DNA from: an uncultured Bacilli bacterium
GTDB lineage: Bacteria; Bacillota_I; Bacilli_A; RF39; UBA660
Reading direction: 5' to 3'
NCBI GenBank assembly: GCA_947630105.1
Contig: CANRGD010000003.1
Span: forward strand, 234 to 64,233
Length of the DNA: 64,000 nt
In this document: one piece after another, positions 16,264-45,321 of the stretch
How the letters are laid out: each line of letters starts with the position of its first letter
How positions within the stretch are numbered: position 1 is the stretch's first letter
Translations under genes and position numbers: made by a program
Notes under the pieces: model-generated
Seen by the model: the letters and a program-made list of their open reading frames with translations, nothing else
What the model was told of the DNA's origin: nothing
Databases searched by the model: none

Positions 16264-18249
16264 TTATTCATCAGGTGCTTTAGGAGTTTCTGTTACTTCA
16301 ACTTTAGGAGATTCAGGAACATCTTTTTCTTCACTTTCATCAGTATTTCCTAAACCTTCATCTTTATCTTCATCGTTATCTTTATCATTATCGGTTTTAT
16401 CTTTATCTGTATTCTTTTTATCAGTAGAATCATCTTTAGTAGTATTTTGTGATAATACAAGTTCTACGCTACCAGATAATTTATCAAGTCTTTTATTTGC
16501 CGGAACACTTTGTGAAACTACATAACCACCAGTACCTTTAAAAGTAACATTAATTCCTAATCTGCTAGCACTTGCTCTTGCTTGAGCTTCACTATCACCC
16601 ACAAAATTAGGAAGCAATTTATAAGAATTACTAGTTTTATATGGTCCTTCACCAATTACTTTTTTTTCATAAGGTTCATTAATTGAAAAACTAAATTCTT
16701 TAATTGTTTCATGATCTTCTAATTCCAAATTAACTTTCATTGCTTGAATTATATCTTTACGACTTTGATTATTAGGAATATAATCCCATAAAACTAATCT
16801 AATTCTTTCATCATAAATCATCTGTCCAACACCTTGTAAATATAGTTGTTGGATATTAACAAGTTCGGCTTCATCAGCAGATAAACTCTTTTTAAGAATA
16901 TCTTTACCAATATTATAGAAAGATAAAATTTGTTTAGTAGTCAAATTAGTATCTAAACTATTTGATATAGTATTTAATATATCCATAAATTTACTTACAT
17001 CAGTAATAGTTTTCATCTTATTAACTAAAGCCATAATAATTTCTTGTTGATGTTGAGCTCTTCCAAAATCACCATTTTCCAAATCATGTCTATTTCTTGC
17101 AAAAACTAAAGCTTGTTCACCATTTAATGTTTGCCAACCTGCATCAATACAAATCTCTCCATCACGCGAAGAATTATCAGTACATAATCTTTTAGGAACC
17201 TCAACTTCTACGCCCCCAACAGCATCAACTAATTTAACTAAACCTTTAAAATTAATCTTCGCATAGTAATCAATATCAGTATCAAAGTAATTTTCAATAG
17301 TATTCATCATACAATCTGTACCATATCCAGCTGCATGAGTAATTTTATTTTCTGCTTTATCAGACCAACAAGCAATAGGAACATAACTATCACGTGGAAT
17401 AGAAAGCATCGTAGCATTTAAAGTTTTAGGATTAAAAGTAATTAGTATTAAAGTATCTCCGTTAGCAACCGCATTCTTTGTTAAAACTTCATCAGTAGAA
17501 TCAATTCCCATTAATAAAATTGTAAAAGGTTCTGTAATATTTTTTCCCGAAGAAGCTGTTTCATTATCTGATGTATCAGCTTTTTTCATCTTTTTATCTT
17601 TACTAATAATAACTTTTGTATCAGTATCAATATTTTCATATCCTGTTATATTTGAAAACATTGAAACATAACTACTTGATACAAACATACAATCAATTTC
17701 TTCTGCATATAAATCCACAAGCATTGTTGAATAATCATCATACTCAACCATATCATTCTCATCTTTTAATTTATATTCCTTGATAATATCATTAGGAATT
17801 ATATAACCTTCAGGAGATTTTTTATCACTTAAAAGACCAATCTTTAAATCACTAACATCTTCAATATCATTAATTTCTGAATCTTTCATTGCTATTAAAC
17901 TTGAAGAATAAGTTACATAGACTTTATTTATACTATTTATTTGTCCATAAACATAAAAAATAGCTCCTCCAATTACTCCACAAATACAAGAATATAAAAT
18001 CATAAATAAAACTAAAAATACTCTCTTAGTTTTTTTCTTTTTCTTTGAACTTTTAACTTTAAATATTAAAATTAAATCAATAATAAGTAATACTCCAATA
18101 ATTATATACCTTATTAAATCTTCAATAGAATTAAGCAAAAATATTTCATATATAGCAAATAAACTTGTTGCTATTGCTATAATTAAAAAAAATAATTGTA
18201 CAACTTTTAAACCTTTCTTTTTTTCTTTTTCATCTTTATGTTTAGCCAT
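16264..18249 (-). CDS. LytR-CpsA-Psr (LCP) family glycopolymer-to-peptidoglycan ligase fused to a C-terminal PASTA domain and an Asp/Lys-rich tail
   Basis: N-terminal TM helices. LCP core (LLMGIDS...TLILITFNPKT...MLSIPRDSYV...NRHD...GDFGRAQHQQ). PASTA-like LLPNFVGDSEAQARASASRLGINVTFKGTGGYVVSQSVPANKRLDKLSGSVELVLS. Confidence 0.85.
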   Translation of the reverse strand: MAKHKDEKEKKKGLKVVQLFFLIIAIATSLFAIYEIFLLNSIEDLIRYIIIGVLLIIDLILIFKVKSSKKKKKTKRVFLVLFMILYSCICGVIGGAIFYVYGQINSINKVYVTYSSSLIAMKDSEINDIEDVSDLKIGLLSDKKSPEGYIIPNDIIKEYKLKDENDMVEYDDYSTMLVDLYAEEIDCMFVSSSYVSMFSNITGYENIDTDTKVIISKDKKMKKADTSDNETASSGKNITEPFTILLMGIDSTDEVLTKNAVANGDTLILITFNPKTLNATMLSIPRDSYVPIACWSDKAENKITHAAGYGTDCMMNTIENYFDTDIDYYAKINFKGLVKLVDAVGGVEVEVPKRLCTDNSSRDGEICIDAGWQTLNGEQALVFARNRHDLENGDFGRAQHQQEIIMALVNKMKTITDVSKFMDILNTISNSLDTNLTTKQILSFYNIGKDILKKSLSADEAELVNIQQLYLQGVGQMIYDERIRLVLWDYIPNNQSRKDIIQAMKVNLELEDHETIKEFSFSINEPYEKKVIGEGPYKTSNSYKLLPNFVGDSEAQARASASRLGINVTFKGTGGYVVSQSVPANKRLDKLSGSVELVLSQNTTKDDSTDKKNTDKDKTDNDKDNDEDKDEGLGNTDESEEKDVPESPKVEVTETPKAPDE

Positions 18250-18712: not shown

Positions 18713-20440
18713 ATGCATATCAAAAAAACTAAATCTAAAAATTATGAACATTATTCTATTATTTATGATGTTAATATTAATGGGAAAAGAACTTCTAAAG
18801 TTTATGAGAATATTGGCAATTATGATAAACTTAAACTTCGTGCTGGTAATGAAGATCCAATTTCTTGGTTAAATAATTATGTTGATAATTTAAACCAAAA
18901 AATTAAAGAAGAAAGTTTACCTTCTATTTTGAAAAAATATCCTAATAAAAAAATCGATAAAAATGTTAAACAATCGTTTAATGCTGGTTACTTATTCTTA
19001 CAAAAAATTTATTATGATTTAAGTATTAATAATATTTGTAATAATATTAAAGATAAATATCAATTTCATTATGATTTAAATAATATTTTATCTAATCTTA
19101 TATACTCTAGAATTATTTATCCTTCAAGTAAGTTAAAGACTTTGGAATCTTCTAAAAACTTCCTTGAACAACCTAACTTTACTTATAATGATATTTTAAG
19201 AAGTTTGGAAGTGTTATCTAAAGAAAGTGATTATATTCAATCTGAGCTTTATAAAAACAGTTTAAAATATTCTAAAAGAAATGATAAAATTTTATTCTAT
19301 GATTGTACTAATTATTATTTTGAAATTGAAGACGAAGATGATTTTAGAAAGTATGGCAAAAGTAAAGAAAATCGTCCTAACCCAATCATGGGAATGGGAT
19401 TATTTCTTGATGGCGATGGTATTCCTTTAACTTTTGATACTTTTGATGGAAGTAAGAATGAACAAGTTACTTTAAAACCTTTGGAAGAAAAAATAATAAA
19501 TGATTTTAATAATCCTAAATTCGTTGTTTGTACTGATGCCGGTTTATCTAGTATTGCTAATAGAAAATTTAATAATAAAAGCAATCGTAAATTTGTTACT
19601 ACTCAATCTTTAAAAAAACTAAAACAATTTTTAAAAGAATGGTCACTAGATTTATCTGAAGGTTGGCATTTACCTGGAATTGATAAAACTTTTAATATTT
19701 CTAAATTAAGAAATGATGATGAATTAATTAACAAATATTACGATAAAATATTTTACAAAGAAAGATGGATTAAAGAAGATGGGATTGAACAAAGACTTAT
19801 TATTACTTTCTCTCCTAAATATCAAGAATATCAAAAACATATTAGAGAAAAACAAATTCAAAGAGCAATTAACATTATAGAAAAGAATCCTAAAAAAATA
19901 AAAAGTAATAACGAAAATGATCCCAAAAGATTTATTGAAGTTATTTCTACAACTAAAGATGGTGAGATTGCTGAAGTAAACAATTATAATCTAAATCAAG
20001 AAAAAATAAATGACGAAGCTTTATATGATGGTTTATATGCCGTTTGTACTAATTTAGAAGATAATGTAGAAGAAATAATTAGAATTAACAAAAGAAGATG
20101 GGAAATTGAAGAATCTTTTAGAATTATGAAAACTGAATTTAAAGCTAGACCTGTTTATTTATCTAGAGAAGATAGAATTAAAGCACACTTTCTTACTTGT
20201 TTCTTATCTTTAGTTGTATTTAGATATTTAGAAAAGAAACTTGATGAAAAATACACTGTTTCAGAAATTATTGATACTTTAAAAAAATATGAATTGAAAA
20301 ATGAACAAATTGGCTATTCTCCAATTTACACTAGAACTGATATAACTGATTTATTACACGAAAAATTCGGCTTTTGCACTGATTATGAAATTATAGATAA
20401 TAAAAATATTAAAAAAATTTGTAAACAAACAAAAAATTAA
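18713..20440 (+). CDS. IS1634-family DDE transposase
   Basis: 575 aa. N-terminus HIKKTKSKNYEHYSIIYDVNINGKRTSKVYENIG resembles IS1634-group transposases. IS4-type R-x3-E-x6-K signature (RWEIEESFRIMK). Confidence 0.8.
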   Translation: MHIKKTKSKNYEHYSIIYDVNINGKRTSKVYENIGNYDKLKLRAGNEDPISWLNNYVDNLNQKIKEESLPSILKKYPNKKIDKNVKQSFNAGYLFLQKIYYDLSINNICNNIKDKYQFHYDLNNILSNLIYSRIIYPSSKLKTLESSKNFLEQPNFTYNDILRSLEVLSKESDYIQSELYKNSLKYSKRNDKILFYDCTNYYFEIEDEDDFRKYGKSKENRPNPIMGMGLFLDGDGIPLTFDTFDGSKNEQVTLKPLEEKIINDFNNPKFVVCTDAGLSSIANRKFNNKSNRKFVTTQSLKKLKQFLKEWSLDLSEGWHLPGIDKTFNISKLRNDDELINKYYDKIFYKERWIKEDGIEQRLIITFSPKYQEYQKHIREKQIQRAINIIEKNPKKIKSNNENDPKRFIEVISTTKDGEIAEVNNYNLNQEKINDEALYDGLYAVCTNLEDNVEEIIRINKRRWEIEESFRIMKTEFKARPVYLSREDRIKAHFLTCFLSLVVFRYLEKKLDEKYTVSEIIDTLKKYELKNEQIGYSPIYTRTDITDLLHEKFGFCTDYEIIDNKNIKKICKQTKN

Positions 20441-20537: not shown

Positions 20538-20828
20538 ATTATATCTAAATTATAATAATTTTTCAAGAATATTGCTTTCCCTTTATAGATATAAATTTAT
20601 TATTACAATTATTTGACAGTTTTTATATATTTTAATGTAAATAATTGTAAAATAAAGCTTATAAAAGATAAAAATGTCGAAAAAACGCCTTCAAACTAGA
20701 AATTATTGTTATAATTAATATAAAGATATAATGAGGGAGGCTTTTATATGGAAAAAAGAAAATTTATTCTTAAATTTATTTTTGCTTTTTCACTAGTTTT
20801 AAATATAAACAATGTAAAAGCTTACTCC
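20538..20828 (+). repeat. Right copy of the 291-bp direct duplication (functional promoter and 5' end of the 20748 CDS)
   Basis: Identical by eye to 18286-18576. Confidence 0.9.
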
Positions 20829-23800
20829 GCAAGTAATTATGAAAATCGAACTTTATGTGGTAATTTTGAAGTAGCTAGTTTTAAAAGTAATGGAACAATT
20901 ACAGCTGTAAATTGTCAAAGTACTTATGAACAAGCTAGAACTTGGATGAAAAATAATGGGGCCGATGATTTAGCTATAATGACTAAAGTTGCAGGTAAAA
21001 CAAAAATAATTGATGCCAATGTAGCTTTACTTGATTTAAGCGTAAATCCCGAAACTTTAACATATTTTTATACAAATAGTGAATTAACATCTTCTGCCTA
21101 TACATACATGGATACAGGATCATTGTATGGTGGAGTAGATGGAGCTCATATTGATACAGCCTATTCCTCAGCAAATAATGTTTGGACAGCTAAAGTAAAA
21201 ACAGGAAATTTCACAGGTTGGATAAGACAAAGCACCTATGAAATTGTTCCTATAACTTGGGTTAAATCATCAAGTTCTTACACAGTAACAAATGATTCTA
21301 TTAGACATAATTATGTTGCTAAAATTCAAAATACATATAGTGGTAGTGCTGGAAGTACCATCGGGCCAAAACCTTCTATGTTAAATGCTGGTACTTATTA
21401 TAGTTATGATGGTCATTATTTTTATAAGAACCTAACAACTTTAATTAAAGATTATAAAGCTGGTAATTATAATAACGCAGTTAATAAAAATGAAGCTTAT
21501 TATAATTATTATATGTATTTATCTAATCATACTAAAACTAACTATTCTAGTATTAACATTGATGAATATATAAGAAATAATTTAGGAATTTACCAAGATG
21601 CGTATGGAAATGACAGTTCCAATGGTAGTTCAAGATTATATGGTAAAGGAACCTTTTTCTATTATGCTCAAGAAAAATATGGCGTTAATGCTATTTTAGC
21701 TTTAAGCCTAAGTCGTAATGAAACAAGTAATGGACGTAGTAACTTAGCTATAAATAAAAACAATGGTTTTGGTTTAAATGCTGTAGACTCTAATCCAACT
21801 CAAGCAGCAAATTGGTATGCCTCTTTTGCTAGTAGTATTTTAGGTTATGCTTCTAAATGGATAACATATGGATATGCTCACCCTAGAGATTGGCGTTATT
21901 TTGGTCCTCAATTTGGCGACAAATGGATTGGAATGAATGTAAAATATGCCTCAGACACCTATTGGAGTGAAAAAATGGCTGCCAATTATTATTCTTTAGA
22001 TAAAGCCTTTGGCCTACAAGATTATAATAATTATCAGTTAGGAGTAGTAACAAAACAAACAAAAGCCTATCAAAATGCATCAACTTCTTCTAAATTTATA
22101 TACACTTATCCTGAAGCAGAAGATGCCGTTGTTATAGTTGGAGAAACTACAGGTACAACTATAGATGGTAATAATAAATGGTATAAAGTTGTAAGTGATT
22201 TAAATGTAGATGTCAATTATAATGAAGTTACAACTGGAAATTATAACTGGGGAAGATATGTTTATATTCCAGCAACTCATGTTAAAAAGATAAATACTGC
22301 TAAAAATGGTTATAAACTTCCAACCGATATAACAGAATATGAAAATAAAAATTATGAATATGATTTATTGATTGAAAATACAGAATTAAAACCTAAAGTA
22401 GGTTTAACTAACACAAATACAGCCTATTATTATGATTCTTCTTTACAATCAAAAACAGGCAAAACACTATTGAAAAATAAATATGTAATGATATATACAA
22501 TTGCTTATAAAAATAATATACCAGTAGCTTATCTTGTAACATCAGATTATAAATATGATCAAAAAGAATGGGTTAAAGCAAGTGATGTAAAATTAGTTAG
22601 TTCAAGTTATGGTAAAGTTAGTGTAACTGTATCTGGAAATCAATATACATGGGTAAATTCTACAACACAAGATACTGCTGCAACTTTAATTAGTGGTCTA
22701 TACACTAATTCATATGTACCTGTTTTAGACCAAAAAACAGTAAATGGCTATTTATGGTACAAAGTTCCCGTAAATTTAACAGGAACAGCTAATGAATTTG
22801 GTTGGACTCTAGCAACAGCTCCAGGAGTTGCCATAACTTTAAATAAGTCAGTAGCTATAAATGCCAAACCAGTAATAGATGCTTCTGATAAATATATAGT
22901 TCAAGGTACAATTTATGATCCTCTAAAAAATGTAAGCGCTACTGATGCTGAAGATGGAAATATTACTAATAAACTACAAGTAACAGAAAACACTGTAAAT
23001 AAAGATAAAGTAGGTACTTATAAAGTTACCTATAAAGTAACAGATAATAATAATCAAACAACTACTAAAACTATTAAAGTTATAGTAACTGAAAATAAAA
23101 AACCCGTAATAAATGCCTCTGATACTGAAATAACAATTAATCATGAAGTTAAAATAAATGTAACTGCCACTGATGCTGAAGATGGAGATATAACTTCCAA
23201 AATAAAAATTAAAGAAAATACAGTTAATAATAAAGTATTAGGTACTTATAAAATAGTTTATACAGTAACAGATAGTTATAACCAAACAACAACCAAAGAA
23301 ATAAAAGTAACTATAACCAAAGATAAAGTTCCTGTAATTACTGCTTCTGATAAAGAAATAGTAATTAATAGTACTTTCAATCCACTTACAAATGTAAGTG
23401 CAAGTGATAAAGAAGACGGTGACTTAACTAAAAATATAAAAGTAGTTGAAAATAATGTAAATACAAAAGAATTAGGTACTTATAAAGTAGTATATGAAGT
23501 TACAGATTCTATGAATCAAACGACAACCAAAGAAATAAAAGTAAAAGTAGTAGAAAAGATTTATGAAGAAAAAGAAGGTTTATTCTATTTCAATTATTTA
23601 AAAGAATCTAATGGACAATTAAATTTACAAGGATATCAAACAATAACAGGAATTGATAATAGTCTAAATACTAAAATTGATTATGAAATAATTTTTGAAA
23701 ATATTGAAACACAAGAAGAAATAGTATTTAAAGCCAATAGAATTGAAAAAGATATTCCTAAAAATGTTTATAGTCCAGATGGTAAAAACTATAACTATTC

Positions 23801-24497
23801 TTGGTTTAATGCTTATATTAACATAGATGATTTACCATTAGGTAATTATAAAGCTTATGCTAAAGCTATAACTAAAGAAGATAAATATTATTCTAAATCT
23901 TTAATAACTAATAAAACATATAATAATCAAATAACAAAAATTAAAAGTAAATCTCATACCGCAACCATATCCAACAATTATGATACCTCAACATCATTTG
24001 TAGAATTTAGTATTAGAAATGATTTTACCTTAGAAAGAACAGGTTCTTATATATATAATCAATATGAAAAATATACTAAATTTGAATTTACAAATAATAA
24101 ATTATATTTACGAGGAAATAGTTATTCTTATGGAATGGATCTAAGTTTAAATAAAGATGTCAAAAGATACATAATTTTTGAAGATACTACAACTTATAAA
24201 GAATATACAAAAGAATTATCTAGTATCACAAATGGAAATTATCAAGTATTTTTACCAGTTTCAGATAATTTAAATAAGACTAGAGCTTGGTATGATAAAA
24301 CTATTGATATTTCTGATTTACCTAAAGGAAACTATTTAATTTATATTAAAACTGAATCCAATATTATAGATGTTTCAGAAATGAAAGAAAAATTAGGAAG
24401 AAGTCTAAGTAATGTAACCGCAACTATTAATTCTAAAAAATACAGCTTTCTAATTAATAAAAATAGAGGTAATAGAATAGAATTAACTATTTCTTAA
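20748..24497 (+). CDS. Large secreted cell-wall hydrolase: N-acetylglucosaminidase (GH73-like) domain, SH3-like region, three Ig-like (DUF5011-type) repeats and two C-terminal beta-rich modules
   Basis: Signal peptide (…NINNVKA/YS). Glucosaminidase-type motif NAILALSLSRNETSNGRSNLAINKNNGFGLNAVD...YASDTYWSEKM. Three ~78-aa repeats ending TYKVTYKVTD..NQTTTK.IKV. Confidence 0.75.
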   Translation: MEKRKFILKFIFAFSLVLNINNVKAYSASNYENRTLCGNFEVASFKSNGTITAVNCQSTYEQARTWMKNNGADDLAIMTKVAGKTKIIDANVALLDLSVNPETLTYFYTNSELTSSAYTYMDTGSLYGGVDGAHIDTAYSSANNVWTAKVKTGNFTGWIRQSTYEIVPITWVKSSSSYTVTNDSIRHNYVAKIQNTYSGSAGSTIGPKPSMLNAGTYYSYDGHYFYKNLTTLIKDYKAGNYNNAVNKNEAYYNYYMYLSNHTKTNYSSINIDEYIRNNLGIYQDAYGNDSSNGSSRLYGKGTFFYYAQEKYGVNAILALSLSRNETSNGRSNLAINKNNGFGLNAVDSNPTQAANWYASFASSILGYASKWITYGYAHPRDWRYFGPQFGDKWIGMNVKYASDTYWSEKMAANYYSLDKAFGLQDYNNYQLGVVTKQTKAYQNASTSSKFIYTYPEAEDAVVIVGETTGTTIDGNNKWYKVVSDLNVDVNYNEVTTGNYNWGRYVYIPATHVKKINTAKNGYKLPTDITEYENKNYEYDLLIENTELKPKVGLTNTNTAYYYDSSLQSKTGKTLLKNKYVMIYTIAYKNNIPVAYLVTSDYKYDQKEWVKASDVKLVSSSYGKVSVTVSGNQYTWVNSTTQDTAATLISGLYTNSYVPVLDQKTVNGYLWYKVPVNLTGTANEFGWTLATAPGVAITLNKSVAINAKPVIDASDKYIVQGTIYDPLKNVSATDAEDGNITNKLQVTENTVNKDKVGTYKVTYKVTDNNNQTTTKTIKVIVTENKKPVINASDTEITINHEVKINVTATDAEDGDITSKIKIKENTVNNKVLGTYKIVYTVTDSYNQTTTKEIKVTITKDKVPVITASDKEIVINSTFNPLTNVSASDKEDGDLTKNIKVVENNVNTKELGTYKVVYEVTDSMNQTTTKEIKVKVVEKIYEEKEGLFYFNYLKESNGQLNLQGYQTITGIDNSLNTKIDYEIIFENIETQEEIVFKANRIEKDIPKNVYSPDGKNYNYSWFNAYINIDDLPLGNYKAYAKAITKEDKYYSKSLITNKTYNNQITKIKSKSHTATISNNYDTSTSFVEFSIRNDFTLERTGSYIYNQYEKYTKFEFTNNKLYLRGNSYSYGMDLSLNKDVKRYIIFEDTTTYKEYTKELSSITNGNYQVFLPVSDNLNKTRAWYDKTIDISDLPKGNYLIYIKTESNIIDVSEMKEKLGRSLSNVTATINSKKYSFLINKNRGNRIELTIS
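22861..23558 (+). repeat. Three tandem ~234-240-bp coding repeats (Ig-like/DUF5011-type domains)
   Basis: KPVI(D/N)ASD...ATDAEDG(N/D)IT...NTVN...GTYK(V/I)(T/V)Y(K/T)VTD..NQTTTK.IKV repeated three times. Confidence 0.8.
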
Positions 24498-24502
24498 AAT
24501 GA

Positions 24503-24532
24503 AAACAACTATCTTTATAGACAGTTGTTTTT
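24503..24532 (+). terminator. Rho-independent terminator
   Basis: AAACAACTATC / GACAGTTGTTT stem (one mismatch) followed by a T-run. Confidence 0.65.
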
Positions 24533-24587
24533 ATAGTTAATAAAAAATTAAATTTACACAAAAATTGTCAATAGAAATATATGAAAA

Positions 24588-24617
24588 TTGATATGGGGGG
24601 GGGTCATATTATATACT
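24588..24617 (+). promoter_or_regulatory. Putative promoter TTGATA - 18 bp - TATACT with a G9 homopolymer (24595-24603) in the spacer
   Basis: Hexamers and G-run read directly. AAGGAGG RBS at 24639-24645 and ATG at 24656 lie downstream. Confidence 0.6.
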
Positions 24618-25448: not shown

Positions 25449-25479
25449 AAATAGTCAATTAAAAAATTGACTATTTTTT
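25449..25479 (+). terminator. Rho-independent terminator
   Basis: Perfect 12-bp stem AAATAGTCAATT / AATTGACTATTT followed by a T-run. Confidence 0.75.
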
Positions 25480-25523
25480 ATATAAAAATATTAATAATTA
25501 GTAGAAAAATAAAAATGTTAATA

Positions 25524-25555
25524 TTGACACTGGGGGGGGGTAGTTATAGTATAAT
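25524..25555 (+). promoter_or_regulatory. Putative promoter TTGACA - 20 bp - TATAAT with a G9 homopolymer (25532-25540) in the spacer
   Basis: Consensus hexamers read directly. GGGAGG RBS at 25596-25601 and ATG at 25609 lie downstream. Confidence 0.6.
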
Positions 25556-25608
25556 AATCTCATAAGAAGAATACCAAGTTGTGTATTATTTTTATGGGAG
25601 GTACTATA

Positions 25609-26388
25609 ATGGAAAGAAATAGAAAAACAAGAATAGTTGCAATTACTTCAATGTTAATAGCTGTTGTCTTTTTAACAGTTGCCTATGCGCTATTTTCAAA
25701 TAATTTAAATATTCAAAATATGTCTGCTACAGTAAAGGCAAATGAAGCAAACTTCAGTGTCAAATTTTCTAACTCATCAACTAAAGTAGATGAAAGTGAT
25801 GTAATACCACATTTTACTCATGGTGCAACTGGAACTCTATTAGATGCTCATATAGATAATAGTGGGCTCAATCCTAAACTTACTAATATAGGAGCAAACT
25901 TTGATTCTCTTGAAGGATTTGATGGTTATACTGACTATAAACAAGGTTGGGCAGGTTATGATTTATATGTTATAAATGATGGAGAATATGATGCTTATTT
26001 AAAAAGTATAAAAATAGAAAATGTTCCAGGTTATAATAAGCCATTAGTTTGCATACCAACTGAAGGAACCTCACAAACATTAGTAGATGAAGCTTGTAAA
26101 TCATTTAGAGTTTTAGTTGGCACTAATAGTAAATATATTGATGTTACATCAGAGGGGATAAAACATGGAGATAGTAATTACATTAATCAACCAGGAAATT
26201 ATACAGGAATAACTGGCATAAAATTAGCAAAACCAGATACTAGTAGAACTTATCCTTATTCTAATCATTATGTTTCTATAAGTATAGGTGCCCTAAGTGA
26301 AAATACTGGTGCAGCAGCTTCCGCAATTGATGGGTCATATGAAGTTAAAATTGGTGATGTAACCGTTGAATATAGTACTCAAGATTAA
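25609..26388 (+). CDS. Uncharacterised signal-anchored surface/secreted protein, paralogue B
   Basis: Start set at ATG 25609 (MERNRKTRIVAITSM...), which has a GGGAGG RBS. Shares the N-terminal (A.FS..LNIQ..SATV...ANFSVK.S), central (Y.(V/I)NDG..DA.L...VC...EGT...V.EACK) and C-terminal (VK.G.V...Y.TQ) motifs with paralogue A. Confidence 0.6.
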   Translation: MERNRKTRIVAITSMLIAVVFLTVAYALFSNNLNIQNMSATVKANEANFSVKFSNSSTKVDESDVIPHFTHGATGTLLDAHIDNSGLNPKLTNIGANFDSLEGFDGYTDYKQGWAGYDLYVINDGEYDAYLKSIKIENVPGYNKPLVCIPTEGTSQTLVDEACKSFRVLVGTNSKYIDVTSEGIKHGDSNYINQPGNYTGITGIKLAKPDTSRTYPYSNHYVSISIGALSENTGAAASAIDGSYEVKIGDVTVEYSTQD

Positions 26389-26408
26389 ATTTAAATAAAA
26401 TTAATTAT

Positions 26409-26441
26409 AAAAAAAATAGCTTTTATAGAGCTATTTTTTTT
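26409..26441. terminator. Bidirectional terminator between convergent genes
   Basis: AAAAATAGCT / AGCTATTTTT stem with A/T-run flanks. Confidence 0.6.
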
Positions 26442-26442: not shown

Positions 26443-28347
26443 CTATTTTACAACCTTAATTGTTATGGTATCACAGAAGTTTCTAATTGACCCTTCAAGA
26501 CCTAACGTACATACTGTTCCTGGAGAAGAATCTCCATTATCACAAGCTTCCACAAACACAAAATTAAATTTATGGTTTGGATTCATTTGTTGAATTATTG
26601 CTTTAGTTTGAGCTCCACTAGATCCTGCTTGAATATTTAATTCTCCTGTCTTACTTTTGTCACAAGTAGAAGTAGAAGAACTACTAGAATTATTTGAATT
26701 ATTATTTTTATTTTCAACTTCTTTTGCTTTACCACTACTAACTGTAATAGTGATTGTTGTATTTTTAGAAATTTCACTACCTGCACTCATAGATTGAGAA
26801 ATAACTTTTCCTTCAGCAACACTATTACTATTTTTATAAACAAAATTATAATTTAAGCCTAATTTTTTAAGTTTACTAGCAGCATCATTTTTACTTAGTC
26901 CAACTAAATTAGGAACTTTTATTGCTACACCATCAGAAATTATAACCATAATAACATCATCATTTTTTATAATTTCTCCTTTTTTATATGAATAACTAAT
27001 TACTTCTCCACTAGGAATATCTTCATTAAATTCATGTTTTTCTTCATACTTAACATCATATTTATCAGCCCATTCTCTAAATTCATCATAAGATTTAACA
27101 TTAGGCATTTTTAAACTACCTTTAGAAATAACAACTTTTATTGTAGTACCTTGCTCAATAATATCACCTTTTTTATGACTAGCACTAATAATATTATTTT
27201 CTTTAACTTTAGCATCATATTTGTCACTAAATTCTAATTTTAAACGATTTTTAATAACCCAATCAGTTATCTCTGTTAAATCCATTTTTGTTAACTCAGG
27301 AACTTTTATTTCCGCACCCTTACTAAACGTAACAATAACTTTCTCATCTTCATTTTCAACTTTTACCATTTTTCCAGCTTTTATACTTTGCTTCATTACT
27401 AAGTCACGTTTTATATCATCAGAATAATCTCTATCAAATTGATATAAAATATGGTGTTGTTTTAAATATAATTCCACTTCAAATTTTGTTTTATTAGTAA
27501 AATCAATTAATTTAACTTCACTAAATCCTAATTCTTCTCCATAGGAAAAAGTTAATTTTAATTTTTCATCTCTTTCTAAATTACCACTTTTACTTTGCTC
27601 AATAACTGTATCTTGTGCTTTATCTGATTCAACAAATTCAACTTCTACATTAGTTAAATAATTTTTTAATACAAAATCTGTTACTTTATCAACATTCCAC
27701 GAAATCATATTTGGAACAACTACTTCTTTATTAGGATTAGGCCCTTCACTAACTGCAACAGTTAGTTCTTTAACATCCTCCAGTTTTGTACCTGCTTTAA
27801 TATCTTGACTTATAATTTCATACTCAGAAACCATATCACTATATTCATATTCTTGTTTAATTTCTACATTATTTTTGGCTGCCCATTTCATAACTTCAGT
27901 TAAACTTTTATTAGAAAAGTCTTTTACTGTAGTATTATCACTAATATTTATAAAATTAAGATTAGTAACAATACCATATCCAAAATAAGCTAATAAAAGA
28001 AAGGAACTAAATAATATCATACTTTTATTTTTTCTATTAGTTGTAAAAGCTACTGCTACATATACAACTGTAAATAATAATATTAATAATGAATTAATTA
28101 AAGTATCTATATTAGAATTATTTTTATTAAAAAACAAATTAACAATAAAATATATAATTGCCAATATTAAAACTACAAATAAGAAAAAATGTACCACTAT
28201 ATGTTTATTTTCTTTATTTTTTTTCTCCTCAATTTCACTACGTTTTTTAGTAGTTTTTATATCTTCTTTAATTTCATTTTTAGACTTCTCATTAGTCATT
28301 ATATCTTTTTTATCTTTATTTTTCTTATTAGTATTTTTATTATCCAT
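26443..28347 (-). CDS. Kinase-less membrane protein with six PASTA-like repeats and a Cys-containing C-terminal domain
   Basis: Lys-rich cytoplasmic N-terminus and 3-4 TM helices. Six ~65-aa repeats, the last canonical (VPNLVGLSKNDAASKLKKLGLNYNFVYKNSNSVAEGKVISQSMSAGSEISKNTTITITVSSG). No kinase or transpeptidase motifs. Confidence 0.7.
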   Translation of the reverse strand: MDNKNTNKKNKDKKDIMTNEKSKNEIKEDIKTTKKRSEIEEKKNKENKHIVVHFFLFVVLILAIIYFIVNLFFNKNNSNIDTLINSLLILLFTVVYVAVAFTTNRKNKSMILFSSFLLLAYFGYGIVTNLNFINISDNTTVKDFSNKSLTEVMKWAAKNNVEIKQEYEYSDMVSEYEIISQDIKAGTKLEDVKELTVAVSEGPNPNKEVVVPNMISWNVDKVTDFVLKNYLTNVEVEFVESDKAQDTVIEQSKSGNLERDEKLKLTFSYGEELGFSEVKLIDFTNKTKFEVELYLKQHHILYQFDRDYSDDIKRDLVMKQSIKAGKMVKVENEDEKVIVTFSKGAEIKVPELTKMDLTEITDWVIKNRLKLEFSDKYDAKVKENNIISASHKKGDIIEQGTTIKVVISKGSLKMPNVKSYDEFREWADKYDVKYEEKHEFNEDIPSGEVISYSYKKGEIIKNDDVIMVIISDGVAIKVPNLVGLSKNDAASKLKKLGLNYNFVYKNSNSVAEGKVISQSMSAGSEISKNTTITITVSSGKAKEVENKNNNSNNSSSSSTSTCDKSKTGELNIQAGSSGAQTKAIIQQMNPNHKFNFVFVEACDNGDSSPGTVCTLGLEGSIRNFCDTITIKVVK

Positions 28348-28487: not shown

Positions 28488-30806
28488 ATGAGTAAAATGA
28501 AAGATTTTCTAAAGAAAAATATAAATTTAATTATAGCAATATTTATTATGTTTCAACCCTTTCTTGATTTATTAACAGGATTATGGGTTCATTTATTCTC
28601 TTTTAATTTAACTTTAGGTATAATAATTAAAATATTATTTTTATTATTTATTATGTATGTAACATTATTTATATTTAAACAAAAAAAAGTATTAATACCA
28701 TATCTATTTATTGGCATTTATTTTATTTTATATATTATAAATATTTTAATATTTAAATCAGGTCAAAATCTTTTTGGTGAAATACAAGGATTAATAAAAT
28801 GTTTTTATTTTCCCTTACTATTATGTTCTTTATATTATTTAAAAGATAATATAAAAATTAGTAAAATGACCTTAGTAACAACATTATTTATTTATTTAAC
28901 ATGTATTTTTGTCCCTTTAATATTTAATGTTGGCTATAAAACCTATGAAATTACAAAAGCTGGAACACTAGGTTTTTATAATTCAGCAAATGAAATAAGT
29001 GGAATTATTTCTATCTTAACCCCTTTAATGATTTTAATTTTTACTCAAAAAAATTCTTCTCTTTTTAAAATGATATTAGGAATAGTATATTTAATAGTTA
29101 TTTTAACTGTGGGAACTAAAACACCATTACTATCATTAGCTATAACTATTTTCTTTGCTATATTATATTTATGGATAAAGAGTATAAAAAAACACTTCTA
29201 CAAGCCCATAATAATATCTCTTTTATTTTTTATAATAGCAACAACTTTTCTTGTCCTAATAATTCCTACCACAAATTTTTATAAAAACATAGAAACTCAT
29301 CTTGATTATCTAGAATTAGATAATATAACAGAAGTGTTTACTGATGAAAAATTAGTTGATCATTTTATATTTAGTCAACGTTTAACATTTTTAAAGAAAA
29401 AAGCTGCTATTTATAAAAAATCTCCGCTATATCAAAAATTAACAGGAATAGGATACTATAAAAAAACAAAAGAAATAAAAATGATTGAAATGGATTATTT
29501 TGATATTTATTTTTCTCACGGATTAATAGGCTTTTTAGTTGTTTTTTCTATTTTAATAATTTATTTAGCTAAACTTTATAAACTAAAAGGAACGTTAACT
29601 TTTACTAATTATATGCTCGGAATAAGTTGTTTACTAATTATCTTTTTATCTTTCTTTACTGGCCATATAATAACAGCTCCATCAGTAAGTTTAATTGCCA
29701 CAATAATTATATTATCACTTGCTCCAAGACCAAAAAAAGATCTTTTATTTACAGGCGTCAATATGAAAATAGGAGGTATTGAAAAAGCCCAATTAAACTT
29801 ATTAAATAAAATTAATTATAATAAATATAATGTTGTTTTACTATTAGAAGAAAAAACAGGCATTTTATTAAAAGATTTAAGTAAAAATATTTTAGTACGA
29901 GAATTAAAAGTTAGTGAAAATAAAAATATTATTTTTAGAAAGTTTATAAATTTTTATCGAAAATTAATATTTACTATTTTTAATTATCATAATTATGATT
30001 TTAGTTGCTGTTATACAACATATAGTTATAGTTCTAATAAATTAGCAAGATTAGCATCCTTAAATAATTCAATCTATATACATAGTAATTATGAACATTT
30101 ATATACCAAAGACAAATACCTAGAATTTTTTAATTCTAGAAGTATAAGTAGTTTTCATCATATTATTTTTGTATCAGCTGAAGCAGCCGCTTATTTTACT
30201 AAATTATATCCAACCCTAAAAGAAAAAATAAAAGTATTTAATAATTTCGTAGATATAAAGCAACTTATTTTAAAAAGTAAAGAACATATTCCCCTAAAAC
30301 ATCCATCTAATAAAAAATTATTAGTATTTGTTGGTAGACTAGATGATTCAGCTAAAAAATTACAAAGAGCCATCAATATTGCTAAAAATATAAAAAATAT
30401 AGAATTATGGATTATAGGTTCTGGACCCGATGAAAAAAATTATAAAAGCTATGTTCAGTCTAATAAAATTAATAATGTTAAATTTTTAGGAGAACAAGCT
30501 AATCCTTATCCTTATATGAGTATAGCTGATTATTTAATTTTAACTTCTGAGTATGAAGGATTCCCAGTTGTTTATCTAGAAGGTATTGTTTTAAATAAAC
30601 CCTTTATAACCACTATTGATGTAAGTGATGATTATATTAACATAGGTAAAGATTATGCTTATATCATTCCAAAAGATGAAACAAAATTAAAAATTAAAAT
30701 AGAAAAAATATTATCTTTAACTCCTAAAAAAATTAATATAAATTTAGATAGTATTCAAACTAAAAGATTAGCCGCATTAGAAAAAATATTTGATGAGGTG
30801 ATATAA
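28488..30806 (+). CDS. Fusion protein: O-antigen ligase/polymerase-like (Wzy_C-type) polytopic membrane domain plus C-terminal GT4-family (GT-B) glycosyltransferase
   Basis: ~400-aa N-terminal half with >=10 TM helices. C-terminal LLVFVGRLDDSAKK...ELWIIGSGPDE...LILTSEYEGFPVVYLEGI (GT4 E-x7-E region). An alternative start at ATG 28497 is possible. Confidence 0.65.
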   Translation: MSKMKDFLKKNINLIIAIFIMFQPFLDLLTGLWVHLFSFNLTLGIIIKILFLLFIMYVTLFIFKQKKVLIPYLFIGIYFILYIINILIFKSGQNLFGEIQGLIKCFYFPLLLCSLYYLKDNIKISKMTLVTTLFIYLTCIFVPLIFNVGYKTYEITKAGTLGFYNSANEISGIISILTPLMILIFTQKNSSLFKMILGIVYLIVILTVGTKTPLLSLAITIFFAILYLWIKSIKKHFYKPIIISLLFFIIATTFLVLIIPTTNFYKNIETHLDYLELDNITEVFTDEKLVDHFIFSQRLTFLKKKAAIYKKSPLYQKLTGIGYYKKTKEIKMIEMDYFDIYFSHGLIGFLVVFSILIIYLAKLYKLKGTLTFTNYMLGISCLLIIFLSFFTGHIITAPSVSLIATIIILSLAPRPKKDLLFTGVNMKIGGIEKAQLNLLNKINYNKYNVVLLLEEKTGILLKDLSKNILVRELKVSENKNIIFRKFINFYRKLIFTIFNYHNYDFSCCYTTYSYSSNKLARLASLNNSIYIHSNYEHLYTKDKYLEFFNSRSISSFHHIIFVSAEAAAYFTKLYPTLKEKIKVFNNFVDIKQLILKSKEHIPLKHPSNKKLLVFVGRLDDSAKKLQRAINIAKNIKNIELWIIGSGPDEKNYKSYVQSNKINNVKFLGEQANPYPYMSIADYLILTSEYEGFPVVYLEGIVLNKPFITTIDVSDDYINIGKDYAYIIPKDETKLKIKIEKILSLTPKKININLDSIQTKRLAALEKIFDEVI

Positions 30807-31726
30807 TGCCAACATTTAGTATTATTGTACCTGTATATAATGTTGAAAAATATATTGACAGATGTTTAAAAAGTATTGTGAATCAAAGCTATAGTGATTA
30901 TGAAATAATTGTTATAAATGATGGCTCTGAAGATAACTCTATAGACATAGCTAAAAAATATCCTATTAAGTTAATAAATCAAAAAAATAGTGGCTTAAGT
31001 GCAGCTAGAAATGCTGGAATAAAAAAAGCTACTGGCAAATATTTAATATTTATAGATAGTGATGATTTTATAGAAAAAGATCTTTTAAAAAATATTTCTA
31101 AAAGTTTAGAAAATAGTCCTGATTTAGTTCGCTTTCAAATTCAAACAATTGATGAAAATAATAATATAAAAAAATTTCCTGAAAAATCTTTTTCTAATAA
31201 AAATGGAGTAGAGGCCTTTCAACAAATTGTATCTTTCCACTTTGTTGAAAGTGCTTGGTGCTATGCTTATAAAAGAAATTTTTTTGAACAAGAAAAATTT
31301 TCTTTTAAAAAAGGAACAGTACATGAAGATTATGGCTTAGTTCCTTTAATTATTATGAAAGCTAAAATTGTAAATTCCATTTCTTATATAGGATATAATT
31401 ATTTTAAACGAAGTGGAAGTATAATGACTAAAAATGACTATTCCTATACTAAAAAGAAAGTAGAAGATTTTTATAATCATTATCAATATTTAATTAAAGA
31501 AATAAATAAAACATCTTTAGATAGTAAAATATTTAAAAGTTATGCTGCCAATAGTGTTATTTTAAAAATATGTGAGTTAAATAATTTCGATTATAAACTA
31601 TATAAAAAGAAATTAAACAAAGATAAGGTTTTTAATAATCTTTTAACAGATTCTTATCTAAGAAAAATCAAAAAAATATTATTACAAATAAGTCCAAAAA
31701 TGTTTTATAAATATATAGCTAAATAA
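30806..31726 (+). CDS. Family 2 glycosyltransferase
   Basis: FSIIVPVYNVEKYIDRCLKSIVNQSY...IVINDGSEDNS...FIDSDD. TAATG overlap with the upstream gene. Confidence 0.85.
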   Translation: MPTFSIIVPVYNVEKYIDRCLKSIVNQSYSDYEIIVINDGSEDNSIDIAKKYPIKLINQKNSGLSAARNAGIKKATGKYLIFIDSDDFIEKDLLKNISKSLENSPDLVRFQIQTIDENNNIKKFPEKSFSNKNGVEAFQQIVSFHFVESAWCYAYKRNFFEQEKFSFKKGTVHEDYGLVPLIIMKAKIVNSISYIGYNYFKRSGSIMTKNDYSYTKKKVEDFYNHYQYLIKEINKTSLDSKIFKSYAANSVILKICELNNFDYKLYKKKLNKDKVFNNLLTDSYLRKIKKILLQISPKMFYKYIAK

Positions 31727-31744
31727 CAAATTATGAGGTGTAAA

Positions 31745-32719
31745 ATGAATTTAGCCAAGAAAAAAGATTTAATATCCATTATTGTACCTTGTTATAATGA
31801 AGAAGAAACTATTCCTATTTTTTATAATGAAATAAACAAAATTTCCAAAGAAATGAAACCAGTAAATTTTGAATTTTTATTTATTAATGATGGAAGTAAA
31901 GATAATACTCTTTCTATATTGAAACACTTAGCTCATACTGATAAAAGAGTTAGGTTTATATCTTTTTCTAGAAATTTTGGAAAAGAAGCAGGAATATATG
32001 CGGGTCTTAAAAATAGTAGGGGGGATTATGTTGCTATCATGGATGTTGATATGCAAGATCCTCCTGCAATGATTCCCAAAATGTATCAAGATATAAAAGA
32101 AACTAAATATGATTGCATAGCTTTATATACAAAGTCCCATGCTGATTATTCTTTTGTTAGAAAAAAATTTACTCAGTGGTGGTACAAATTAATTAAAACA
32201 TTATCTAAAACTAAACAAATGCCTGGAGCTAGAGATTTTAGATTAATGACAAGACAAATGGTAGAAGCTATAACATCCCTATCAGAATATAACCGTTATA
32301 CTAAAGGAATGTTTGGTTTTATTGGTTTTGAAACTAAGTGGATTGCCTATGATACCCCTAACAGAATTAAAGGAAAATCTAAATTTAGTCTAAGAAAATT
32401 AATTAAATATGCTATGGAAGGTATTATTGCTTTTTCAACTACACCATTAATAATTGCTGCATATATTGGCTTGTTTTTCTGCTTAGTAGCTTTTTTAGCC
32501 ATAATAATTATCATAACAAAAACTTTAATTTGGGGAGATCCTGTTACAGGTTGGCCATCTCTTGCTTGTTTAATTGTATTTATAGGAGGTCTTCAATTAT
32601 TCTTCTTTGGAATAATGGGAATTTACTTATCTAAAATATATTTAGAAGTAAAACATAGACCTATTTATATAACTAAAGAAACAGAAAAAGGTAGTGAAAA
32701 TTATGAAAACAAATGTTGA
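31745..32719 (+). CDS. GtrB/DPM1-like polyprenyl-phosphate glycosyltransferase (GT2 with two C-terminal TM helices)
   Basis: ISIIVPCYNEEETI...INDGSKDNT...MDVDMQDPP plus two C-terminal TM helices. Start at ATG 31745 after GAGGTG. Confidence 0.8.
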   Translation: MNLAKKKDLISIIVPCYNEEETIPIFYNEINKISKEMKPVNFEFLFINDGSKDNTLSILKHLAHTDKRVRFISFSRNFGKEAGIYAGLKNSRGDYVAIMDVDMQDPPAMIPKMYQDIKETKYDCIALYTKSHADYSFVRKKFTQWWYKLIKTLSKTKQMPGARDFRLMTRQMVEAITSLSEYNRYTKGMFGFIGFETKWIAYDTPNRIKGKSKFSLRKLIKYAMEGIIAFSTTPLIIAAYIGLFFCLVAFLAIIIIITKTLIWGDPVTGWPSLACLIVFIGGLQLFFFGIMGIYLSKIYLEVKHRPIYITKETEKGSENYENKC

Positions 32720-33656
32720 TATAAGTATTATAGTGCCTGCTTATAATGCTTCTTCAAGTATAAAAAAATGCCTAGAGTCATTAATAAATCAAACAAAAAA
32801 AGAGTTAGAATTTATAATTATTAATGATGGATCAACAGATGATACAGAAAAAAAAGTTAAAGAATTTACTGATCTAAGAATTAAATATTTTAAAAATAAA
32901 AATCAAGGAATAGGTAAAAGTAGAAATATTGGTATTGAAAAAGCAACGGGTAAATATATTATGTTTGTTGACAGCGATGATTATTTAGAATTAACAGCTT
33001 GTGAAAAATTATTTAATAAAGCAAAAAAAGATAAATTAGATATCGTAGTATGCGATTTTTATTGTGTTAATGAAAATAAAATAAAAGAAGAAAAATTAAT
33101 ATCTTTTTCCAATACAACATTAAAAGAAACTCCAAATCTTATAAATAACATAAATTTATCTCCATGGAATAAAATATATAGAGCATCTTTAATAAAAACA
33201 AATAATATAAAATTTATTGAAGATTTAAAATATGAAGATGCTCCCTTTGTTATTATCGCTTTAGATAAAGCACAAAAAATAGGTAAAATTAATGAATGTT
33301 TAAATTATTATATTATTCATAAAAATAGTGAAACAACAATAAGAGATAAAAAAGTTTTTGATATTTTAAAAATTCTAAATATTATAAGAACTTCTTTAAA
33401 AAATAAACCATATTTAGCAGAAGATTTAAATAAATTAACTGTAAGAATTATTACAAATTATACGATTCAACAACGCGTTCAACAAGATAAAGACATTAAA
33501 TTAAAATTTATTAATGCTGCTTTTAACTATCTAAAAAAAGAAGTTCCCGATTACAAAAAAAATAAGTATTTTAAAAATAGAAATTTTTTCCAAAAAACAA
33601 TTGAAAGAAGTAAATTGTTAACAATAATATATTGTTCCTTATATAGAAATAAATAA
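32703..33656 (+). CDS. Family 2 glycosyltransferase
   Basis: ISIIVPAYNASSSIKKCLESLINQT...IIINDGSTDDT...FVDSDD. Overlaps the previous gene's end. Confidence 0.85.
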   Translation: MKTNVDISIIVPAYNASSSIKKCLESLINQTKKELEFIIINDGSTDDTEKKVKEFTDLRIKYFKNKNQGIGKSRNIGIEKATGKYIMFVDSDDYLELTACEKLFNKAKKDKLDIVVCDFYCVNENKIKEEKLISFSNTTLKETPNLINNINLSPWNKIYRASLIKTNNIKFIEDLKYEDAPFVIIALDKAQKIGKINECLNYYIIHKNSETTIRDKKVFDILKILNIIRTSLKNKPYLAEDLNKLTVRIITNYTIQQRVQQDKDIKLKFINAAFNYLKKEVPDYKKNKYFKNRNFFQKTIERSKLLTIIYCSLYRNK

Positions 33657-33740
33657 AATAAAATAAAATTCATTTCTTTACAAGCTTATAATTAAGATAT
33701 ATAATAAAAAAGAATAACTAAAATGAAGGGGAGTTTATTT

Positions 33741-37641: not shown

Positions 37642-37643
37642 TT

Positions 37644-37666
37644 AGACCTAATTAAGGTCTTTTTTC
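37644..37666 (+). terminator. Rho-independent terminator
   Basis: AGACCT / AGGTCT stem with a 5-nt loop and T5. Confidence 0.6.
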
Positions 37667-37694
37667 TTATAATATCGAAATAATACTAAAGAAT

Positions 37695-37724
37695 TTGACT
37701 GTTTTATTTTCATTATGCTATAAT
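37695..37724 (+). promoter_or_regulatory. SigA-type promoter (TTGACT - 18 bp - TATAAT)
   Basis: Hexamers read directly upstream of the ABC exporter genes. Confidence 0.55.
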
Positions 37725-37765
37725 TTTTATTGATATATATATAAAGAATGAGAGTGATAAACATA

Positions 37766-38578
37766 ATGCAAAGTATTAAAAATATTTTAAATAATTTTAA
37801 AAGATATAAATTTTTAATGGGACAATTAATTTTAAGAGACTTTAAAGTTAAATATAAAAGATCAGTTTTAGGAGTTATCTGGAGTTTATTATATCCTATA
37901 TTAATGATGGCAGTTATGGCATTAGTTTTTTCGCAAATGTTTAGATTTAATGTAGAAGGAGTTAATTATCTAGTCTATTTACTTACTGGTATTATTATGT
38001 TTCAATATTTTAGTGAAGCTTCTAATAATGCTATGACATCAATAGTCTTTAATTTTGGTCTTTTAAATAAAGTATATATACCAAAATATATTTTCCCATT
38101 AGCAAAGTGTATTTTTGTTGGAATAAATTTTGTATTAACTTTAATTCCTTGGATAATAATTATTATTATAACTCAATTTGGATTAGGAACTTATCCCGCA
38201 TCAATAAATATATACTACTTAATAATTCCATATATATTTTTATGCCTATTCCTATTCACTGTTGGCATAGGATTATTTTTATCATGCGTTTCTGTATTTT
38301 TACGTGATGTTTTTTACATATATGGAATAATTTTGACTATTTGGCAATATTTTACTCCTATTTTTTATAGTATAGAAATATTACCTCAGAAACTACAAAT
38401 GCTTTTTAATTTTAACCCTCTTTATCAATATATAACTGCAGTAAGAACAATAGTGCTTTATGGTCAATGCCCATCACTATCTAATTTAGGTATTTGTGCA
38501 TTATTTTCTATTGGAATGCTATTAATTGGAATTATTGTTTTCAAAAAAAATCAAGACAAATTTATATATTATATTTAA
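37766..38578 (+). CDS. ABC-2 type polysaccharide/teichoic-acid export permease (TagG/Wzm-like)
   Basis: Six TM helices. N-terminal LILRDFKVKYKRSVLGVIWSLL motif typical of ABC-2 permeases. Start at ATG 37766. Confidence 0.85.
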   Translation: MQSIKNILNNFKRYKFLMGQLILRDFKVKYKRSVLGVIWSLLYPILMMAVMALVFSQMFRFNVEGVNYLVYLLTGIIMFQYFSEASNNAMTSIVFNFGLLNKVYIPKYIFPLAKCIFVGINFVLTLIPWIIIIIITQFGLGTYPASINIYYLIIPYIFLCLFLFTVGIGLFLSCVSVFLRDVFYIYGIILTIWQYFTPIFYSIEILPQKLQMLFNFNPLYQYITAVRTIVLYGQCPSLSNLGICALFSIGMLLIGIIVFKKNQDKFIYYI

Positions 38579-38592
38579 TTAGGAGTGATTTT

Positions 38593-39330: not shown

Positions 39331-39344
39331 TTTCAGGAGGTTAT

Positions 39345-41396: not shown

Positions 41397-41397
41397 T

Positions 41398-42558: not shown

Positions 42559-42566
42559 TGATATAT

Positions 42567-45306: not shown

Positions 45307-45321
45307 AAGAAAGGATTAAAA

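Follow-up and report, generated by a model that had tools for sequence, protein, structure and literature searches.

Promoter-spacer homopolymer switches are textbook knowledge in a handful of pathogens. The candidate considered here is a run of nine G residues (G9) between the -35 and -10 hexamers of a gene for a predicted secreted protein, called copy 2, in a 64,000-nucleotide stretch of DNA from an uncultured Bacilli bacterium of the RF39 lineage (assembly GCA_947630105.1, contig CANRGD010000003.1, positions 234 to 64,233), referred to throughout as the window. A second G9 tract lies in the promoter of a neighbouring paralogue, copy 1. In Treponema pallidum, the OmpW homologue tp0126 carries a poly-G tract between its -35 and -10 elements and is transcribed best when the spacer measures 17 bp (PMC7864442). 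Tracts of about 8-11 G are found at surface-protein genes of this organism, several of them paralogues, and their length varies within isolates with G9 often in the majority, while in promoters of the tprE/G/J type the tract is located just 5' of the start site and not in the spacer (PMC7864442). According to the passages of the same paper that concern Neisseria meningitidis, a poly-G tract between the -10 and -35 elements of porA sets expression from high to none through spacing, and in opc a poly-C tract encompasses the -35 element (PMC7864442). Similarly, the paralogous Vlp surface genes of Mycoplasma hyorhinis are transcribed separately, have a conserved 5' region and carry one promoter homopolymer each, in which insertions and deletions lead to independent and combinatorial ON/OFF expression (PMC10502178).

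The window shares features with each of these systems and departs from each of them. The Vlp genes are the phylogenetically nearest case, the closest relatives of the window being metagenome-assembled genomes (MAGs) labelled Tenericutes, Mycoplasma or Bacilli, and the window likewise has two paralogues, each with its own tract-bearing promoter and terminator, from a family in which a 5' cassette is conserved. The Vlp tracts are poly-A, however, and belong to lipoprotein genes of a wall-less organism, whereas the window combines poly-G tracts with 25% GC, proteins lacking a lipobox and a set of cell-wall genes. Compared with tp0126 and the tpr genes, which encode outer-membrane proteins of a spirochaete, the window comes from a low-GC, walled, Bacilli-type organism and encodes a secreted, unannotated family; moreover, length variation and its effect on transcription have been measured in T. 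pallidum, while for the window they are predictions from sequence. The porA and opc genes are single genes of a Gram-negative pathogen, in contrast to the multigene family with a shared cassette described here. The common porA alleles lie at or just under 17 bp, whereas the modal allele of the window family lies 3 bp above it, where overlapping -10-like hexamers may act as a buffer. Both G9 tracts exceed the length of about eight nucleotides from which tracts of the porA, tp0126 and vlp kind are regarded as hypermutable.

On balance, it is probable that the G9 tract of copy 2 is a slippage-prone homopolymer in a sigma-A-type promoter spacer, which tunes transcription of a single-gene unit encoding a beta-sandwich protein that is secreted or located at the surface. 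A literature search found no description of such promoters in gut commensals of the Firmicutes/Bacilli or in RF39-type lineages. The initial annotation knew of no poly-G promoter switch in this kind of organism; this is fair for the organism group. What is new is the host group and the gene class, since porA, tp0126 and vlp are established examples of the mechanism.

Anatomy of the copy 2 and copy 1 promoters

The copy 2 promoter (25520-25559, aatatTTGACActGGGGGGGGGtagttatagTATAATaatc; Table 1) has nine G residues between consensus TTGACA and TATAAT hexamers, as had been claimed, and its spacer (25530-25549) measures 20 bp, made up of ct, G9 and tagttatag. At the sequence level these consensus hexamers belong to a stand-alone transcription unit, which agrees with the earlier placement of the tract in the promoter spacer of the copy 2 gene. 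The -10 region offers three overlapping hexamers, each at a different distance from TTGACA in the G9 allele. TATAAT at 25550-55 is a perfect consensus that begins 9 nt past the tract and has the 20-bp spacer. TAGTAT at 25547-52 lies exactly 17 bp from TTGACA and retains T-12, A-11 and T-7, and it is this pair, TTGACA-17-TAGTAT, that the promoter scan reports at 10/12 matches. TATAGT at 25545-50 has a 15-bp spacer. For copy 1, the 18-bp spacer proposed earlier was found to be correct (TTGATA-t-G9-N8-TATACT), and the two promoters are unalignable apart from the placement of the tract 1-2 nt after the -35 hexamer.

The window is ~25% GC (13.7% G). Its 64 kb contain only two G runs of at least eight nucleotides, the tracts of copy 1 and copy 2; a G6 comes next in length, and C runs reach five at most. 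For G8+ runs, 0.04 pattern matches are expected, and the observed number was reached in 0/100 shuffles. The copy 2 tract is therefore far from a chance occurrence. The hexamer pair itself is also uncommon, with TTGACA occurring 25 times on both strands together and only two perfect TTGACA-N14-22-TATAAT pairs in 64 kb, one of which is the copy 2 promoter. The sole window G run longer than five apart from the two tracts, the G6 at 32019-32024, lies within a gene for a GT2 glycosyltransferase and is probably too short for hypermutability. A search for further G or C runs of at least eight, as had been proposed, adds nothing in the window beyond the two tracts, while loci of low-GC gut MAGs carry more of them, mostly 5' of open reading frames (ORFs) that begin with a charged segment and a transmembrane helix.

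Upstream of the -35 hexamer, about 35 bp are conserved, including an A/T-rich stretch (25485-25523 in the window; cassettes on contigs L029, L030, L032 and L114). A CGTGGAAAA motif occurs some 20-25 bp 5' of the -35 in many or most cassettes and is degenerate in the window copy (agtagaaaaa). This region may act as an UP element or be bound by a regulator.

Conservation, tract length and recurrence

Among 5.8 billion clusters, 10 homologues were found for copy 2 and 24 for copy 1. In GTDB species representatives, protein searches, alignment and the exact cassette 18-mer gave no true matches to the family (26 matches of the 18-mer are at the level of chance), and in the JGI metagenomes nothing was found by alignment or with a gapped cassette pattern. 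The comparative DNA for the family consists of eleven short ENA or Logan contigs, with metagenome contig coverage of 1.3-2.5x. In these contigs the copy 2 cassette, TTGACAc[t]-Gn-tag[tc]tatagTATAAT, is conserved, and so are the leader and the signal-peptide coding region that come after it. The same cassette is found 5' of eight further family genes on metagenome contigs from four samples, and L029 and L114 carry it in tandem. Its tract is G9 in six copies, G8 in one, cG10 in one, cG4AG6 in one and G10 in L126, with spacers to TATAAT of 19, 20 or 21 bp and in no case 17-18 bp. Tract length thus differs among promoter copies that are otherwise conserved, in this family as well as in the MAG contexts described below.

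The window locus was also assembled independently, as contig L126 (sample ERZ27249337). Over the 1637 bp compared, the two assemblies differ by two single-nucleotide polymorphisms (SNPs) and a single indel, and this indel is located in the copy 2 tract, which is G10 in L126 (coverage 1.3x) and G9 in the window, while copy 1 is G9 in both. The difference is suggestive of a length polymorphism at the locus. The two SNPs fall in the 3' end of the 1249-aa gene upstream of copy 1. Three contig ends coincide with tracts, as L127 starts in the copy 1 tract and ends in the copy 2 tract, and L001 starts just past a tract.

The coding regions behind the cassette are far less uniform. The cassette and the first ~150 nt of coding sequence are 95-100% identical between L029 (301-1400) and L031 (1240-2300), compared to ~50-65% for the remainder. 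This mosaic suggests that recombination or gene conversion places the 5' cassette onto variable gene bodies, and the combination of a conserved 5' part with a variable body is typical of variable surface-protein families.

Homologues that have no tract indicate which -10 hexamer came first. Their promoters read TTGCAT-17-(tag)TATAAT in L113 and TTGCTT-17-(TGt)TATAAT in L117. Because both use the homologous TATAAT at 17 bp, TATAAT is the ancestral -10, and the tract lineage at G9 is therefore 3 bp out of register, in line with the earlier statement that G9 holds a strong -10 away from its optimal spacing. In a further sub-clade, P0016, three family genes are arranged in tandem (L115, 1-1600) with gaps of 14-49 bp that contain neither G tracts nor recognisable promoters; judging by this layout, they are probably co-transcribed.

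The same architecture was sought outside the family by scanning GTDB representative genomes for the pattern TTGACA-N0-3-G8+-N4-12-TATAAT, which permits spacers as short as 12 bp and longer than 24 and which matched at least 129 sites in at least 120 loci. The counts that follow hold among the matches listed. Half of the sites come from loci with a GC content under 36%, for the most part in MAGs of uncultured gut Bacilli, Tenericutes and Anaeroplasmataceae. Some of the sites are from Clostridia. Tracts of G8-G17 stand between perfect TTGACA and TATAAT hexamers and belong to cassette families that have several copies per MAG, often in tandem. For example, Lapin-017__bin4 contains a TTGACAcc-G8/9/10-taataTATAAT family, and L232 contains three tandem copies of TTGACAgtc-G10-tatctgtTATAAT (at 997/2716/4143). 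The number of G residues differs in 6 of the 13 contexts with at least two members. With each context counted once, the spacers are 15 bp (6), 16 (11), 17 (3), 18 (3), 19 (7), 20 (8) and 21 (1), a bimodal distribution with modes at 15-16 and 19-20 bp and a dip at the 17-18 bp optimum. This dip is not imposed by the query, because the pattern permits spacers on either side of it and across it. Most sites of the 20-bp class have a TGn extended -10. Furthermore, the 379 kb of listed low-GC loci contain just four more G runs of at least eight, and all four directly follow TTGAC. The listed cassette copies are not independent of one another, and the MAGs may belong to orders other than that of the window organism.

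The genes behind these sites also have features in common. Among the low-GC matches listed, most downstream ORFs start with a charged segment and a transmembrane (TM) helix, and many of the ORFs at the matches listed then carry an AYF-like motif, [GS]x[YF]A[YFL][FY], as the window proteins do. Past this N-terminus, the downstream proteins of the other MAG cassettes have no homology to the window proteins, and they have no Pfam domains. On the evidence of the pattern scan, putative poly-G promoter spacers recur across low-GC gut Bacilli MAGs. A wider proposal is tentative and rather doubtful, namely that uncultured low-GC gut Bacilli share an undescribed, lineage-wide set in which essentially every G8+ run would be a promoter-spacer switch for a rapidly evolving secreted protein that bears a TasA-like signal peptide. 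The tracts would keep their spacers 1-3 bp away from the optimum, at 15-16 or 19-20 bp, and overlapping -10 hexamers would make the control multi-state and not binary.

The switch would matter beyond this locus. According to a 2025 review, only pathogens seem to have multi-locus phase variation, which may reflect a bias in the databases (PMC11868660). If the tracts are switches, uncultured gut commensals would bear many independent ones on families of secreted or surface proteins, with consequences for evasion of immunity (immunoglobulin A, IgA), phage receptors, strain persistence in the gut and a population heterogeneity that MAG consensus sequences hide. If the lineage-wide proposal were also true, these commensals would be multi-locus phase-variable to a degree comparable to Neisseria or Campylobacter.

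Expression state of copy 2 and alternative explanations

In the proposed mechanism, replication slippage would add or remove G residues in the tract, and each change in their number would alter the distance from TTGACA to the -10 region. The altered spacing would in turn produce a heritable and reversible change in transcription, and each paralogue, having its own tract, would be tuned independently. In the G9 allele, TATAAT would be 3 bp too distant and expression reduced, with full expression expected at G6-G7, and TAGTAT at 17 bp would probably support residual transcription. Such a switch is plausible because of the anatomy of the promoter, its conservation, the differences in tract length and the recurrence in related MAGs.

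The prediction in the initial annotation that copy 2 is OFF at G9 was not established. It is not a safe call because TAGTAT sits 17 bp from the -35 hexamer at this length. A heuristic position-weight score, with frequencies of the classical Escherichia coli compilations, is high for copy 2 from G5 to G12; it peaks locally at G6, G9 and G11 and is lowest at G8. TATAGT would enter register at G10-11. For copy 1 the same profile has a single peak at G8 (17 bp), which places G9 one step off, and with its 18-bp spacer and single -10 copy 1 is predicted to be near its optimum. Copy 2 at G9 is expected to have reduced but probably not zero expression and may be weakly or moderately ON, so that the element may resemble a dial with several steps more than a plain ON/OFF switch. 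The different expression states and independent switching of the paralogues that the annotation had proposed are likewise not established.

Several observations weigh against a switch. Tract length is rather uniform, with G9 in 6/10 cassette copies and a 20-bp spacer in seven, and this uniformity together with the lack of any 17-18 bp cassette is equally compatible with stabilising selection on a single length and with a default-off state. Conservation of the cassette may stem from gene conversion and not from independent selection on each copy. The G10 of L126 could be a homopolymer sequencing error in a contig of 1.3x coverage, and contig breaks at G runs can be technical. In addition, the copy 2 score varies so little between G5 and G12 that changes in length might have small effects, and in all cassette lengths seen, G8-G10, TAGTAT is 16-18 bp from the -35 hexamer, with a mode of 17.

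The last of these observations leads to the alternative that survives best, which is unlikely though by no means negligible: G9 would be the selected functional length, TTGACA-17-TAGTAT the promoter in use and copy 2 ON, so that one-G changes would only trim expression and TATAAT would not be the -10 used. The promoter-scan match and the constant distance of TAGTAT agree with this, as does the heuristic score at G9 (13.1), which is above that of the tract-less promoters L113 and L117 (~11). The hexamer does not have to be read as a -10, however, since its context, TAGTATAAT, is ancestral: tract-less L113 has it too, with TATAAT as the in-register hexamer. Other 20-bp poly-G families in related MAGs read TGTTAT or ATGTAT at 17 bp and so have no in-register -10; because these families lack an alternative -10, the 20-bp spacing to TATAAT seems to be a shared property. 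The purine at the usual start distance (A at 25562) also suits TATAAT better, and the upkeep of G9 in a 25% GC genome is left unexplained, as a fixed promoter needs no G run.

Constancy of length could also be taken as the sign of a fixed cis element, either a regulator site or a structural spacer that sets promoter strength, with selection holding the length constant. This explanation is improbable. G9 does prevail in the window-family cassettes, and among the matches listed the tract is exactly G10 in 7/7 gtc-G10-tatctgt and 3/3 ac-G10-tattcatg cassettes across MAG species, while the conserved motif upstream of the -35 could be where a regulator binds. The length nevertheless varies within the window family and in the 6 of 13 multi-member contexts mentioned above, and the sequences flanking the tract differ between families in which the tract and its place right after the -35 are retained. 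No candidate regulator is evident, and in the systems described so far G8+ runs are inherently unstable (PMC7864442). An artefact of sequencing or assembly, such as poly-G from two-colour chemistry or a mis-join, can be dismissed: although the short contigs L127 and L001 begin or end at or in a tract and coverage is 1.3-2.5x, the tract is internal to unique, conserved promoter sequence on both sides, is present in the window, in the second assembly of the locus (L126) and, across four samples, in eight paralogous cassettes, and has the same architecture in many unrelated MAG projects, so that the assembly error that had been named as a possible refutation is ruled out.

Four other roles for the tract were rejected or set aside. 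It is not an intragenic frameshift switch, being located 5' of the ribosome-binding site (RBS) and of any start codon, including a TTG at 25579. A hairpin or terminator would require a complementary C run, which is lacking, and a MerR-type promoter with a 19-20-bp spacer would be expected to have dyad symmetry in the spacer, of which there is none. An A-form-like G tract that makes 20 bp equal to 17 bp would give a similar length by rough estimate, but the hexamers would be ~90 degrees out of rotational phase.

Gene products and genomic setting

The two genes are paralogues, as had been claimed, with 31% identity between their proteins. Both proteins have a charged N-terminus and a TM helix followed by a G/A-[YF]-A-x-F-S motif (GFAAFS in copy 1), and C-terminal to the motif a beta-sandwich with two invariant Cys is predicted (AlphaFold2 model of copy 2, predicted local distance difference test score, pLDDT, 81). 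Pfam and NCBIfam searches with the two paralogues, with their N-termini and with 24 family members gave no match. The AlphaFold2 model had no fold match in the PDB at E <= 0.001, and a profile search of PDB sequences was also empty. No lipobox was found, copy 2 having no Cys in its N-terminal 40 residues and the VLC of copy 1 not fitting the pattern L-[ASTVI]-[GAS]-C.

The N-terminal layout is like that of TasA and CalY, whose motifs are GGGTWAAFND and GGGTFAYFSD, the shared form being G-x-[FY]-A-[AYL]-F-[SN]. These SipW-processed proteins resemble copy 1 and copy 2 in this layout, and the likeness concerns the product and not the switch. Searches for TasA/camelysin by hidden Markov model (HMM), sequence and fold gave no match to either protein, and the paralogues differ from TasA and CalY in matching no curated signal-peptide or family model and no TasA-like fold. 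Distant homologues of copy 1 (P0028, 35% identity; L117, 10001-14464, and also L118-L122) form a conserved cluster in the order family gene, archaeal-type signal peptidase I of 376 aa (TIGR02228 at 86 bits, with the cut-off at 52), DUF5305 protein and 513-aa protein of unknown function. These loci have an ordinary 17-bp promoter and no G tract. By analogy, the cluster resembles a tapA-sipW-tasA-like operon for secretion and assembly. In the window, no archaeal-type signal peptidase I was found among the 40 ORFs scanned (of 47 with at least 120 aa). The TasA/CalY-like motif and the neighbourhood of the distant homologues suggest that the family proteins are secreted and possibly form fibres or surface structures.

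Because strong hairpins with a T run behind them follow the upstream 1249-aa gene, copy 1 and copy 2, the two paralogues are separate promoter-gene-terminator units (Table 1). A leader of 40 nt separates the copy 2 TATAAT from the RBS. For copy 2 the ORF tool gives a start at the TTG at 25579, which is not credible, and the ATG with an RBS is preferred. The hairpin downstream of copy 2 is, from its sequence, likely to be a bidirectional terminator. Rfam and tRNA scans of the window found no RNA element that would explain the region.

Table 1. Coordinates of features around copy 1 and copy 2 (window positions), with further pattern-scan sites given by locus
Feature	Position	Strand	Remarks
Terminator-like hairpin	24499..24534	+	Closes upstream 1249-aa gene; RNA fold -14.0 kcal/mol, z = -5.1
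Copy 1 -35-like hexamer TTGATA	24588..24593	+	From sequence; promoter scan 10/12 with 18-bp spacer
Copy 1 G9 tract	24595..24603	+	Within promoter spacer; 1 nt (t) past -35
Copy 1 -10-like hexamer TATACT	24612..24617	+	18 bp from -35 (t, G9, tcatatta between)
Copy 1 gene, 254 aa	24656..25420	+	RBS AGGAGG 24640-45
Copy 1 terminator	25449..25482	+	12-bp hairpin, then T run; RNA fold -11.9 kcal/mol, z = -4.6
Copy 2 -35 hexamer TTGACA	25524..25529	+	Consensus; kept in all family cassettes
Copy 2 G9 tract	25532..25540	+	Begins 2 nt (ct) past -35
Copy 2 -10 region tagttatagTATAAT	25541..25555	+	Three overlapping -10-like hexamers
Copy 2 RBS GGGAGG	25596..25601	+	7 nt 5' of ATG; conserved in cassettes
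Copy 2 gene, 259 aa from ATG	25609..26388	+	Two conserved Cys
Hairpin with A run and T run either side	26408..26441	.	Between copy 2 and convergent PASTA-repeat gene; RNA fold -13.7 kcal/mol, z = -3.6
Further example sites	L150 3256; L176 4376, 5505; L198 4135/5561		Pattern scan, GTDB representatives (L128-L247)

The window genes include PcrA, LigA, GatA and GatB, together with a set of cell-wall genes (LtaS, LCP, PASTA, FemAB, choline-binding repeats and a glycosyltransferase cluster). GatB is at most 79% identical to that of species representatives, and its best matches, all from uncultured gut MAGs, are labelled Bacilli, Tenericutes, Mollicutes, Erysipelotrichaceae or "Mycoplasma sp. CAG:877". 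Judged by these genes, the host is a low-GC, walled, uncultured gut Bacilli lineage, of a species without a representative.

The gene directly 5' of copy 1 (20748-24497) encodes the 1249-aa surface protein, in which a glucosaminidase domain is combined with three bacterial-surface immunoglobulin-like domains, and 300 bp 5' of this gene lies a gene for a 575-aa transposase of the IS1634 family (18713-20440; NCBIfam, 365 bits). Two minus-strand genes flank the locus, one for an LCP (CpsA/LytR) protein fused to a PASTA domain (16264-18249) and one for a 634-aa membrane protein with six PASTA repeats and no kinase domain (26443-28347); their predicted domain arrangements are unusual wall-sensing architectures. 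Further downstream, a long same-strand glycosyltransferase cluster (28488-47482) includes an O-antigen-ligase-like/GT4 fusion, an ABC-2 exporter, a pyruvyl transferase, GtrII-like proteins and an acyltransferase, and probably functions in the synthesis of wall teichoic acid or polysaccharide. Positions 33723-37641 encode two choline-binding-repeat proteins that carry C39-like peptidase and GH25 lysozyme domains.

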